Below, one piece after another: positions 44,805-63,584 of a stretch of DNA of 64,000 bases. The notes under the pieces are model-generated. The model saw only the letters and a program-made list of their open reading frames with translations, had not been told where the DNA came from and did no database searches. The stretch lies in the sequence record OR525701.1; one strand, 5' to 3'. The number at the start of each line of letters is the position of its first letter. Position 1 is the first letter of the stretch. Origin of the DNA: Escherichia phage vB-Eco-KMB38. Position numbers and translations under genes: made by a program.

Positions 44805-45275
44805 TTAATCATGTTTCCACACCCCATCGGTATTTGACCAAAGACGCTGATTATCTGATCCTCGCCACAGCTTTTTAGTCGGAAGATTTTTCTCATACTT
44901 CCCATCAATAATAACATCAACATATTTAAGCATTTCTAGTTGTTTAATATCTTCAAACTTATATCCTGTCCACAACCAAATGCTTTTATTGGGATAAAGA
45001 TTTTTTACTGTTTGAGCAATGCGATGAATAACATCTCGGTTATCAGGATAGAGAGGGTCTCCTCCGGTTATAGTTAATCCTTCTATATAATCATTATTCA
45101 AACATTCAATCAATTGTTCTAGTGTTTCACCAGTGAATGGAATACCATTTCTAGCATTCCATGTTGATTTATTATAACACCCTTCGCATTTATGCAAACA
45201 ACCCGTAACGAAAAGAACGACCCTGCAACCAGGGCCATTCACAAAATCGCAAGGATAAAATCTATCATAATTCAT
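44805..45275 (-). CDS. nrdG: anaerobic ribonucleotide reductase activating protein (radical SAM)
   Basis: 156 aa; CLHKCEGC (Cx3Cx2C); same length as T4 NrdG. Confidence 0.85.
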   Translation of the reverse strand: MNYDRFYPCDFVNGPGCRVVLFVTGCLHKCEGCYNKSTWNARNGIPFTGETLEQLIECLNNDYIEGLTITGGDPLYPDNRDVIHRIAQTVKNLYPNKSIWLWTGYKFEDIKQLEMLKYVDVIIDGKYEKNLPTKKLWRGSDNQRLWSNTDGVWKHD

Positions 45276-47089
45276 TGGTGTTTAACCCTATGCATGATTT
45301 CTTTATTTTTGCCGAGATTAAATCCGCGTTCGTTCGGATTTCCCAAATAACCACAAGTTCTTCTTATTGTGTTCATCTTTTTAGGGTCAGTTTCTCCGCA
45401 AACTGAACAAACAAATCCGTTTTCAGTAGGAGTCATTTCATGGGTACTTCCACATGTAAAACATTTATCTACTGGCATATTAACACCAAAATAATCTAAA
45501 TGTTGTGCGGCATAATCCCATACAGCCTCAAGACCTTTTAAGTTATTTTTCATATCAGGAAGTTCAACATAAGAAATGTGACCACCGGTCGCAATGAAAT
45601 GATATGGCGCTTCACGAGAAATCTTTTCAAACGGAGTAATATTTTCTTCTACTGAAACATGGAAACTATTAGTGTACCAGCCTTTATCAGTAACATCTTT
45701 TACACTTCCATATTTTTCTGTATCAAGTTTACAGAAACGATAACACAAGTTTTCAGCAGGAGTAGAATACAAGCTAAAAGCAAAACCGGTTCTTTCAGTC
45801 CACTGTTTAAGATGAGCATTCATTTTAGTTAAAATTTCTTGTCCAATATCACGACCGACAAGAATATTCAATTCGTGAATACCAATGTATCCTAGGGACA
45901 CTGAACTTCTACCGTTTTTAAATAACTCAATTATATCGTCATCAGGTTTAAGACGAACCCCGAATGCACCTTCTTGGTAAAGAATAGGAGCAACAGTCGC
46001 TTTAACTCCTTTTAAGGAACTAATTCTACACATCAAAGCTTCAAAACACAAATCCATTCGTTCATTGAACAATTCGGCAAATTTCTGTTCATTGAATTGT
46101 GTTCCAATATAAGAATCTAACGCAATGCGAGGAAGATTCAGTGTTACAACACCAAGATTATTGCGTCCATCAAGAATTTCATTACCAGTCGAATCTTTCC
46201 ATACACTCAAGAAACTACGGCAACCCATTGGAGAAACTGGAACTGAAGAACCAGTAATAGCTTTATTATTCTTAACCGAAATAATGTCAGGATACATTCT
46301 TTTGCTTGCACATTCTAACGCAAGTTGTTTAATATCATAGTTCGGATCATCTTTATAAAGATTAACACCTTCTTCAACGAACATAACAAGCTTAGGGAAA
46401 ATAGGAGTTATTCCATCACGACCAAGGCCTTTAATGCGGTTTTTAAGAATTGCTTTCTGAATCATTCGTTCAGTCCAGTCGGTTCCTGTACCAAATGTAA
46501 TTGTTACAAAAGGAGTCTGTCCGTTTGAACTAAAGAGAGTATTTACTTCATATTCATAAGCTTGGAATGCATCGTATACGTCTTTTTCTGTTTTAGATTG
46601 AGCATAATTCAACGCATCAGCGATTTGCCATTTTTCTGCATCTTCAACATGTTTAGCGTATGTGCGTTTAACATAAGGAGAAAGAACTTTATCGACATTC
46701 GCAAATGTAGTTCCGCCATATTGGTGTGAAGCAACTTGTGCGGTAATTTGTGCCATAATTGCAGTAGCAACGCCAATAGATTTAGGCGTTTCAATTTGAG
46801 CATTGCCTAATTTAAATCCATTCTCAAGCATCCCCTTTAAATCGACTAAACAGCAATTAGTAAATGGAAGAGCAGGAGAATAATCAATATCATGCATGTG
46901 AATGATTCCGCTTTCATGCGCATTCATAATAAAAGACGGGACCATATTTTTGGCAATGTGCTTAGACACAATACCAGCCATAAGGTCCCGTTGAGTTGGA
47001 AAAACACGAGAATCTTTATTAGCATTCTCGTTTAAAAGGTCTTTATTAGTTTTATGAATTAATCCTTCAATTTCTTTTTCAATTTTCAT
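45272..47089 (-). CDS. nrdD: anaerobic ribonucleoside-triphosphate reductase
   Basis: 605 aa; C-terminal Zn site CFTCG...CSVCG and glycyl-radical motif RTCGYLG; uninterrupted. Confidence 0.9.
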   Translation of the reverse strand: MKIEKEIEGLIHKTNKDLLNENANKDSRVFPTQRDLMAGIVSKHIAKNMVPSFIMNAHESGIIHMHDIDYSPALPFTNCCLVDLKGMLENGFKLGNAQIETPKSIGVATAIMAQITAQVASHQYGGTTFANVDKVLSPYVKRTYAKHVEDAEKWQIADALNYAQSKTEKDVYDAFQAYEYEVNTLFSSNGQTPFVTITFGTGTDWTERMIQKAILKNRIKGLGRDGITPIFPKLVMFVEEGVNLYKDDPNYDIKQLALECASKRMYPDIISVKNNKAITGSSVPVSPMGCRSFLSVWKDSTGNEILDGRNNLGVVTLNLPRIALDSYIGTQFNEQKFAELFNERMDLCFEALMCRISSLKGVKATVAPILYQEGAFGVRLKPDDDIIELFKNGRSSVSLGYIGIHELNILVGRDIGQEILTKMNAHLKQWTERTGFAFSLYSTPAENLCYRFCKLDTEKYGSVKDVTDKGWYTNSFHVSVEENITPFEKISREAPYHFIATGGHISYVELPDMKNNLKGLEAVWDYAAQHLDYFGVNMPVDKCFTCGSTHEMTPTENGFVCSVCGETDPKKMNTIRRTCGYLGNPNERGFNLGKNKEIMHRVKHQ

Positions 47090-62861: not shown

Positions 62862-62907
62862 AACATTTTAAAACATCTTCAGACCCTTCTATAATCAATT
62901 TAGCCAT
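62683..62907 (-). CDS. small hypothetical protein
   Basis: 74 aa ORF; overlaps previous in another frame, only one may be real over the shared part. Confidence 0.4.
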   Translation of the reverse strand: MAKLIIEGSEDVLKCFAAWFSCSGEQSFIEAFRMGDITGNYPTTDITVRGYGINEPIQLVEYDLATDEEIPYVD

Positions 62908-63269
62908 TATAGACTCTCGGTAAAGGTACGAGCGATAACGTCGCGCTGCTGTTCCGGAGTCAGAGAGTTAAAGCGAACTGCATAACCGGATACACGGATG
63001 GTCAGCTGCGGATATTTTTCTGGATGCTTAACTGCATCTTCCAGAGTTTCACGACGCAGAACGTTAACGTTCAGGTGTTGACCACCTTCAATTTTAACTT
63101 TAGGTTGATGTTCAATTTCAATTTCACGAGCATTCAAACCGTAGAAAATTTCCGGGTCTACAATAGCGTCTTCTTTAAAAGTCTTAGAGACAATAATCCG
63201 GGCTTGAGTACCGTCTTCAAAATAAATAGTGCCTTTATGTTCACCTTCAAGAATTTGATATGCTTTCAT
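62907..63269 (-). CDS. autonomous glycyl radical cofactor (GrcA/YfiD-like)
   Basis: 120 aa; C-terminal [60 protein letters not shown] matches E. coli GrcA C-terminus as I recall it. Confidence 0.8.
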
Positions 63270-63275
63270 ATAACC

Positions 63276-63584
63276 TCAATTAGAAAATAAATTTATCCAA
63301 GATTTTTCTTTAATCAAAAATGGGTCGGAATTAAACGCCATTAAACTTTGAGTGATTAATCCCTTAAATGGCCCATCAATAAATTCCATTTTGAAATGCG
63401 GAATACTAGTCATCAACCGTGCATTAGGAGCAGTACAAAGAACCTGCTGCCCTGCGAACGGACCTTTAGTCAAACGATATCGTTTAGGTTTAAAATGGTA
63501 AATCTCATAATTTTCTACAAGGGCCCTTTTATTGCATACTGGGCTATTATAACAATACTCAAAAACTTCAATAGTGGTCATCAT
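63276..63584 (-). CDS. hypothetical protein
   Basis: 102 aa ORF; ATGA overlap with upstream gene. Confidence 0.55.
   Translation of the reverse strand: MMTTIEVFEYCYNSPVCNKRALVENYEIYHFKPKRYRLTKGPFAGQQVLCTAPNARLMTSIPHFKMEFIDGPFKGLITQSLMAFNSDPFLIKEKSWINLFSN

Follow-up and report, generated by a model that had tools for sequence, protein, structure and literature searches.

A host-identical grcA tract in the vs.6 gene of an RB69-like T-even phage, and evidence for its replacement from different hosts

Two proteins, Escherichia coli YfiD (GrcA) and phage T4 Y06I, are the validated spare parts of pyruvate formate-lyase (PFL), according to PMC8683613. As reported there from Wagner et al. 2001, both receive their radical from the PFL activase, bind oxygen-cleaved PFL and restore its activity. 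The same paper describes the C-terminal part of YfiD as a duplicate of the PFL C-terminus, and its 60 N-terminal residues as disordered and important for radical installation, not for catalysis. Y06I is the product of vs.6, a gene placed among the conserved T4-like open reading frames (ORFs) in an early comparative paper (PMC1524935). The gene family and its function are already known, and many GenBank records label the gene GrcA. Here, we analyze vs.6 in a stretch of 64,000 nt from Escherichia phage vB-Eco-KMB38 (OR525701.1), referred to as the window at its full length. The source is an RB69-like T-even phage (Mosigvirus), and its 363-nt gene is 100% identical to that of Escherichia phage PTK and 98.1% identical to that of RB69, where it is annotated as vs.6.

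Our reading, to which we assign a probability of roughly 85%, is that vs.6 encodes a GrcA/Y06I-type cofactor and is a mosaic, in which an old phage 5' part has been joined to a tract of host grcA by repeated, host-specific recombination. The parts of the gene on which this reading is based are the following:

62907-63269, minus strand: vs.6 coding sequence, 120 codons plus TAA, orthologue of T4 Y06I (ORF list and sequence; nucleotide identity to PTK and RB69; Pfam, NCBIfam and PDB matches)
63092-63269, minus strand: 5' part of phage lineage, gene nt 1-178, residues 1-59 (AT-rich, 30% identity to the GrcA N-terminus, kept among T4-like phages)
62920-63091, minus strand: host-derived tract, probably formed by conversion, covering gene nt 179-350 from within codon 60 to within codon 117 and encoding the glycyl-radical domain (171 of 172 nt as in E. 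coli grcA)
63021, minus strand: the sole difference between the tract and E. coli grcA, CCA against CCG, synonymous at Pro83 (codon comparison)
62985-62987, minus strand: codon of Gly95, predicted to carry the radical, within the motif RVSGYAV (alignment to 6OWR and to PflB 1H16; invariant column)
62907-62919, minus strand: phage-type 3' end, gene nt 351-363, ending ..C GAG AGT CTA TAA (sequence comparison)

The host-identical tract and the domain it encodes

A first-pass annotation had described the gene as GrcA/YfiD-like with a host-identical C-terminal half, and had proposed nucleotide alignments to grcA and pflB as a check. We ran these alignments, and they bear the proposal out. In a codon-by-codon comparison with grcA of E. 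coli strain 1190, 171 of the 172 nucleotides of the tract are identical (99.4%), while T4 vs.6 shares an exact run of 178 nt with E. coli grcA (nt 179-356; 100%). The recombination junction that the annotation wished to locate lies at gene nt 179. Upstream of it, most codons differ from grcA and a DNA match is undetectable; at the other end, the last 13 nt of the gene touch four sense codons, each a synonymous variant of the host codon. Both pflB and tdcE were rejected as donors, as their identity to the tract is about 79%. When the whole window was compared by megablast with 5,426 complete E. coli genomes, the tract was its sole match, and no other host-like DNA was found in the 64 kb. Each of the 5,426 genomes matches the tract at grcA with at least 98% identity, the best of them with 99.4%.

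Codon by codon, the agreement far exceeds what phage codon usage would produce. Taking usage from 49 phage ORFs (14,306 codons), 23.8 identical codons would be expected over the 56 compared, against the 55 found (Poisson-binomial P = 2.8e-24). As controls we used EkoM5VN and the contigs L105, L107 and L108, four T4-like phages with other hosts. They encode the same 56 residues, but with only 31-34 of the 56 codons and 84-86% nucleotide identity to E. coli, and when one mismatch is allowed, their longest runs with a sampled host gene reach 35-41 nt. The composition of the tract is also that of the host. Its GC content is 49.4%, and 41.1% at third codon positions (GC3), close to the corresponding part of E. 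coli grcA (50.0% and 42.9%); the phage ORFs have a GC3 of 29.8%, the mean GC of the window is 37.1%, and the 5' part of vs.6 itself has 33.9% GC and 21.7% GC3.

The encoded protein is a small stand-alone glycyl-radical domain without the barrel of the glycyl-radical enzymes. Gly_radical is the sole Pfam domain of its 120 residues (67.3 bits over residues 59-101, with the cut-off at 22.2), the NCBIfam GrcA model TIGR04365 (spare_glycyl) matches with E = 6e-47 over profile positions 23-126 of 126, and the best match of solved structure is E. coli YfiD/GrcA (PDB 6OWR, E = 2e-42), followed by PflB, among 33 PDB hits. Residues 61-120 are identical to residues 68-127 of E. coli GrcA at all 60 positions, and the C-terminal domain shares 49 of 64 residues with PflB 696-759. 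Gly95 is equivalent to GrcA Gly102 and PflB Gly734, and its column is invariant in an alignment of 57 phage and bacterial homologues, as are 41 of the 60 C-terminal columns. The radical-bearing role of this residue is established for PFL and GrcA (PMC8683613). Together, these matches support the assignment of vs.6 as an autonomous glycyl-radical cofactor of the phage and a Y06I orthologue, and by homology the RB69-like protein would have spare-part activity toward PFL.

Several statements of the first-pass annotation thus stand: the protein belongs to the GrcA/YfiD family, the match to E. coli GrcA is as described (the alignments gave far more than moderate protein similarity), and the T4 homologue named as a PFL spare part, whose validation is cited in PMC8683613, is indeed the counterpart of this gene, with 113 of 120 residues identical and the same neighborhood. 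Its description of the gene as chimeric holds at the DNA level. Only the 3' tract is recent and host-derived; the gene as a whole belongs to an old phage family, and its homology to GrcA extends over most of the sequence.

The N-terminal half is, as had been suggested, divergent. Residues 1-60 share 18 of 60 positions with E. coli GrcA in a global alignment, and homology to GrcA is detectable from about residue 18-21 onward. Among phages, the same part shares 53 of 60 residues with T4, 44 with Klebsiella phage JD18 and 40 with CC31, and its synonymous divergence (dS) between T4 and the window is 0.44. An AlphaFold2 model of moderate confidence (mean predicted local distance difference test, pLDDT, of 74; predicted template modelling score of 0.40) places four beta strands in the 50 phage-specific N-terminal residues with a pLDDT of 84-87; as a single model, this carries low weight. 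The model gives the radical domain a lower confidence (46-78) than these strands. The mosaic junction, at residue 60/61, lies close to the boundary between the N-terminal and C-terminal structural parts of YfiD, and the phage N-terminal half may alter the timing or the manner of radical installation.

Host-specific tracts and the number of transfers

About 25 phage genes were compared base by base; for population counts we relied on bands of BLAST identity and on 41-mer probes for single alleles. The tract is present in 728 phage records. In 642 of these, from phages of E. coli and Shigella and from further T-evens (T4, T2 and RB69 among them), it is at least 95% identical; the E. coli T-evens that carry it belong to Tequatrovirus and Mosigvirus. 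Klebsiella phages are 85-89% identical to this E. coli-type tract. Instead, the Jiaodaviruses of Klebsiella carry a K. pneumoniae-type tract that starts at the same junction (nt 179-181) and ends near nt 344. The Klebsiella grcA references were contigs from a metagenome scan, assigned only by a product exactly matching K. pneumoniae GrcA (GRCA_KLEP7). Against this K. pneumoniae type, phage Mineola is exact over 164 of 164 nt, and JD18 has three mismatches in 164 nt, two of which correspond to a second Klebsiella allele. Over codons 61-113, JD18 shares 50/53 and UTI-K1 48/53 with K. pneumoniae, but only 36-38/53 with E. coli; in contrast, T4 shares 53/53 and the window 52/53 with E. coli, and 34-36/53 with K. 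pneumoniae. At the population level, identity to the K. pneumoniae tract is 95% or more in 120 records of Klebsiella and Raoultella phages, and 87-89% in E. coli phages. The Jiaodavirus tracts vary at up to 17 sites, many of the variants being Klebsiella or Raoultella alleles, and have invariant 3' ends.

A third donor type appears in a T4-like contig from human metagenomes (L115; IMG/VR UViG_3300008607_000007, 301-693). It differs from its close relatives L113 and L114 at 33 sites, of which ten consecutive ones (nt 312-378, a tract of about 70 nt) all match Haemophilus-type grcA (L066/L069); elsewhere, 6 of 23 do. From these comparisons we conclude that at least three independent host-to-phage events took place, with E. 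coli, Klebsiella and Haemophilus-type donors.

The identity of T4 to the window changes along the region: from 62% in vs.7 it rises to 88% in the 5' part of vs.6 and to 99.4% in the tract (dS 0.024), then falls to 73% over the final 15 nt, 70% in vs.5 and 66% in vs.4. As identity in the tract is far above that of its flanks, the conversion is younger than the split of the phage genera. Over the tract, the phages are at a dS of only 0-0.024 from E. coli. Since grcA of a second Escherichia species (0.05), Citrobacter (0.40) and Salmonella (1.2) all lie further from E. coli than this, the donor of the E. coli-type tract was E. coli or a very close relative.

Several points weigh against repeated, host-specific replacement, or limit it. 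None of the 5,426 E. coli genomes carries the CCA variant at 63021, which points to some drift after the conversion. Phage PKO111 of K. oxytoca has no match above 90% among the hosts sampled. Among the phages examined, no tract was found in Slopekvirus, Karamvirus, Krischvirus, T5-like or jumbo homologues, although these phages infect the same hosts and conserve the protein equally, nor was one found in Pseudotevenvirus. T-evens from Salmonella, Yersinia, Serratia and Citrobacter carry an E. coli-type tract (98-99%); therefore, either tracking of the host is not immediate or such phages live mainly on E. coli, and the pattern may hint that E. coli is the main natural host of T-evens isolated on other genera. 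The TIGR04365 score of 159.1 bits is under the equivalog cut-off of 170 bits, because the phage N-terminus is divergent and the model is tuned to bacterial GrcA; we therefore place the gene in the phage vs.6/Y06I subgroup and not among strict bacterial GrcA equivalogs. The mechanism of recombination is one that we infer from sequence patterns. Lastly, polymorphisms shared by phage and host provide weak evidence of ongoing exchange. At grcA nt 240, CGT and CGC occur in about 45% and 55% of E. coli genomes, and the site is polymorphic in both phage genera too (528 versus 85 records). A second shared variant, T at nt 294, is found in only 5 E. coli genomes and in about 26 phage records, and as it is so rare in E. 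coli, parallel mutation is plausible. With one site common and the other rare in E. coli, shared polymorphism is not a decisive proof of ongoing exchange.

An alternative, which we consider unlikely, is that a few discrete transfers, one for each host group, were followed by spread from phage to phage, with no continuing exchange with hosts. In its favor, all 17 sampled vs.6 genes of E. coli T-evens have the same exact 5' junction at nt 179, T-evens isolated on Salmonella, Yersinia and Serratia keep the E. coli-type tract, and CCA is joined by several other phage-private tract variants absent from E. coli. However, a common 5' junction is equally expected if each event ends where host homology ends. 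In both Tequatrovirus and Mosigvirus, genus-specific sequence comes as close as 9 nt to the start of the tract and resumes 1-7 nt past its end, and the flanking genes of the two genera are only 62-73% identical, whereas transfer between phages should drag flanks along. At the 3' end, for instance, RB69, moskry, mobillu and Mosigvirus-like IMG/VR contigs end in GAG AGT CTA, and T4-type phages in GAA/GAG AGT TTG. Such flanks fit separate conversions, each halting where host homology halts, and fit phage-to-phage transfer less well. Moreover, PMC6024577 describes RB69 as unable to recombine with T4. Spread from a single transfer also sits poorly with the Jiaodavirus tracts, in which many differing sites follow Klebsiella/Raoultella alleles although the 3' ends are identical.

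A stronger form of the repeated-recombination reading is that the radical half of vs.6 evolves continuously in concert with grcA of the current host, host fragments recombining into it at a measurable rate. We put this forward tentatively, as a possibility that does not reach even odds. If true, a phage that shifts to a new host would automatically gain a radical domain matched to the local PflB and PflA, and host adaptation would proceed through templated copying and not through mutation. The gene would also be a natural reporter of recombination between virulent phages with hydroxymethylcytosine (hmC)-modified DNA and host chromosomes.

Apart from these comparisons, we recorded several observations on carriers and homologues. 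E. coli-type tracts occur in Salmonella phage pSe_SNUABM_01, Yersinia phage fPS-65, Serratia phage PhiZZ30 and Citrobacter phage PhiZZ23. An 'HNH homing endonuclease' annotated over the tract in phage ZCEC14 was taken up as an agent of phage-to-phage spread and rejected, being a mislabelled vs.6 coding sequence; in that record (OP168898.1; L177:1303-1665) the neighbor is named 'deoxynucleoside kinase', and the names are apparently shifted or mis-assigned. A 118-residue phage-type protein that NCBI names 'GrcA [Escherichia coli]' lies on a contig of 167,969 bp, probably a T4-like phage under a bacterial name. In Aeromonas phage 31 (L089:417-785), vs.6 lies within a tRNA cluster next to gene 30.3 and not in the vs-regB region. 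T5-like phages (DaisyDussoix, L090:620-988; about 35 IMG/VR contigs, L136-L162 and L173) have a 122-residue GrcA homologue adjoining tRNA genes, labelled inconsistently as formate acetyltransferase, acetyltransferase, ribonucleotide reductase subunit or 2-ketobutyrate formate-lyase; these homologues have no host-identical tract, with a nucleotide identity of 73-75%. The Klebsiella jumbo phage K64-1 (AB897757.1; L093:801-964) has an unannotated GrcA-like sequence about 160 nt downstream of nrdD, and the K64-1-related IMG/VR contigs L118, L119 and L121 (345-357 kb) encode homologues of 118 residues. Among bacterial records, grcA is found on a 275-kb replicon named 'plasmid unnamed4' in Klebsiella sp. 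WOUb02 (L023, NZ_CP170105.1), and an enterobacterial-type grcA lies on a contig labelled as the Gram-positive Vagococcus sp. WN89Y (L032, NZ_JBQPOM010000029.1), which suggests contamination or mislabelling.

Other explanations of the protein and the tract

The first-pass annotation also considered that the protein might serve the phage's own anaerobic ribonucleotide reductase, NrdD. The window does encode NrdD (45272-47089, minus strand; Pfam NRDD at 571 bits, with a Gly_radical match as well) together with the NrdD activase, NrdG (44805-45275, minus strand), about 16 kb from vs.6. Moreover, the early genome paper suggested a role in nucleotide metabolism from the shared Gly_radical Pfam domain (PMC1524935), and the homologue in K64-1 lies just downstream of nrdD. 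In BLASTP against the NrdD of the window the best hit has E = 6.1 and lies away from the RRTCGYLG radical site, there is no NrdD chain among the 33 PDB hits, which GrcA and PflB lead, and the domain has full identity to GrcA and the 49/64 identity to PflB given above. A spare part for NrdD, instead of or besides host PFL, is therefore very improbable, and this suggestion of the annotation is not supported. With NrdD/NrdG and vs.6 in one phage, two separate glycyl-radical functions suited to low oxygen would be present.

Four further explanations of the tract are more improbable still. The first dispenses with transfer and attributes the identity to purifying selection on the radical domain, together with convergence on optimal codons. 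The 41 invariant positions of the last 60 residues, and the high codon bias of grcA, lend it some appeal. However, the control phages encode the same residues with quite different codons, the P value for codon sharing was computed under the usage of the phage itself, enterobacterial hosts differ among themselves across the tract (dS 0.4-1.2), and Klebsiella phages match Klebsiella codons and not those of E. coli. Convergence by codon bias was rejected on the controls, and we give the explanation next to no credence. A functional DNA or RNA element conserved in both phage and host is just as hard to credit: nothing was found in its favor beyond the identity itself, no Rfam family matches the tract at E <= 1 in the window, T4 or E. 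coli loci, and the synonymous sites of the tract vary freely among hosts and among phages outside Tevenvirinae.

Equally hard to accept is the reverse direction, in which E. coli would have imported the 3' half of grcA from a T-even phage. Identity alone is silent on direction. The composition of the tract is nonetheless host-like, with a GC3 of 41% against 30% in phage ORFs and 22% in the gene's own 5' half. Against Citrobacter, E. coli grcA has a dS of 0.57 in the 5' half and 0.40 in the tract; against Salmonella, the values are 0.80 and 1.20. This similar divergence of the two parts among Enterobacteriaceae suggests vertical inheritance of the host gene. In each of the 5,426 E. coli genomes, grcA lies with the tract at the ung-grcA-eamB locus, and a lytic infection leaves no survivor to inherit phage DNA. 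Finally, mis-assembly of host reads into the phage genome, which a short patch of exact host identity can resemble, has a negligible chance of being right, since 728 phage records sequenced independently (including T4, T2 and RB69) have the tract in frame and between identical junctions, IMG/VR contigs have it too, and it contains phage-private variants.

Gene context, proposed role and comparison with known systems

The order vs.7-vs.6-vs.5-vs.4 is common to the window and T4, and vs.6 is single-copy in T4. One further feature was read from the sequence upstream of the gene:

63274-63277, minus strand: GAGG, resembling a Shine-Dalgarno sequence and placed 5-8 nt ahead of the ATG of vs.6 (putative function)

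This motif overlaps the stop codon of vs.7 (TGA, 63276-63278). At the other end, the stop codon of vs.6 overlaps the start of vs.5 (TAATG), and the 3' end of vs.6 might act as the translation-initiation region of vs.5. A scan for promoters and terminators around vs.6 gave only background-level signals.

By homology to the characterized proteins, we hypothesize that the host activase PflA installs the radical on Gly95, and that the vs.6 protein then docks on host PFL whose own radical domain oxygen has cut off. Production of acetyl-CoA and formate would thereby be restored during infection under microaerobic, gut-like conditions, extra spare parts supplied by the phage keeping host PFL working. 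Class III ribonucleotide reductase uses formate, a product of PFL, as its reductant. Consequently, sustained PFL activity could feed the phage NrdD/NrdG with formate, a plausible though indirect link between the two systems.

As for the origin of the tract, T-even infection fragments host DNA and runs very active homologous recombination, and recombination in T4 needs roughly 50 bp of homology, so the perfect homology of 164-178 nt is ample. The most likely route would be an exchange of phage DNA with host fragments during infection, by homologous recombination or gene conversion. Unconverted phage genes are still 83-86% identical to host DNA, because the protein sequence is so invariant (41/60 columns). 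This residual similarity could seed a first conversion, after which the converted tract would recombine more readily.

In a literature search, we found no description of T-even vs.6 as identical to host grcA at the nucleotide level, or of a host-specific replacement of the tract, although an earlier mention may exist. The observation concerns the best-studied virulent phages, which destroy host DNA and otherwise have no nucleotide similarity to it; in them, one stretch of 164-178 nt is at or near 100% identical to the gene of the current host, and its allele changes from one host genus to another. Should conversion be recurrent, vs.6 offers a simple, testable system in which to measure natural recombination between phages and host chromosomes, and also a possible explanation for the continued fit of an auxiliary phage protein to its partners in the host. 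The tract is also of practical concern. It is a reliable signal for host prediction at the nucleotide level, and filters for host reads will remove or mis-assign it. Furthermore, grcA has been chosen as a Straboviridae marker in PCR and quantitative PCR for typing E. coli phages (PMC12845203). If the primers sit in the host-like half, the quantitative assay could amplify E. coli DNA, since every E. coli genome is at least 98% identical over 168 nt.

Compared with the described systems, the closest counterpart is T4 Y06I, which has the same length, neighborhood and 5' tract junction as the protein of the window. The two differ by seven N-terminal substitutions, the window tract ends 6 nt earlier (nt 350 versus 356) and has one private synonymous change, and the last codons are GAG AGT CTA in the window (Mosigvirus-type) and GAA AGT TTG in T4. 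E. coli GrcA is seven residues longer than the phage protein, its C-terminal half being identical, radical site included; the N-terminus of YfiD is reported as disordered, whereas that of the phage protein is predicted as beta structure. In PflB, segment 696-759 corresponds to the part that, according to PMC8683613, the spare part would replace after oxygen cleavage at Gly734. Unlike PflB, the vs.6 product stands alone, as a 14-kDa protein without the catalytic barrel. As a pattern of exchange, the nearest likeness is with psbA and psbD of cyanophages, in which a metabolic gene of T4-like phages has patchy GC content and has exchanged segments with its host homologue (PMC1484495). In vs.6, by contrast, the tract replaces only the catalytic half and no transfer back to the host was seen; the hosts are enterobacteria, the phages are the classical hmC T-evens, and the tract is short (164-178 nt), fixed in its junctions and at or near 100% identity to the current host species.

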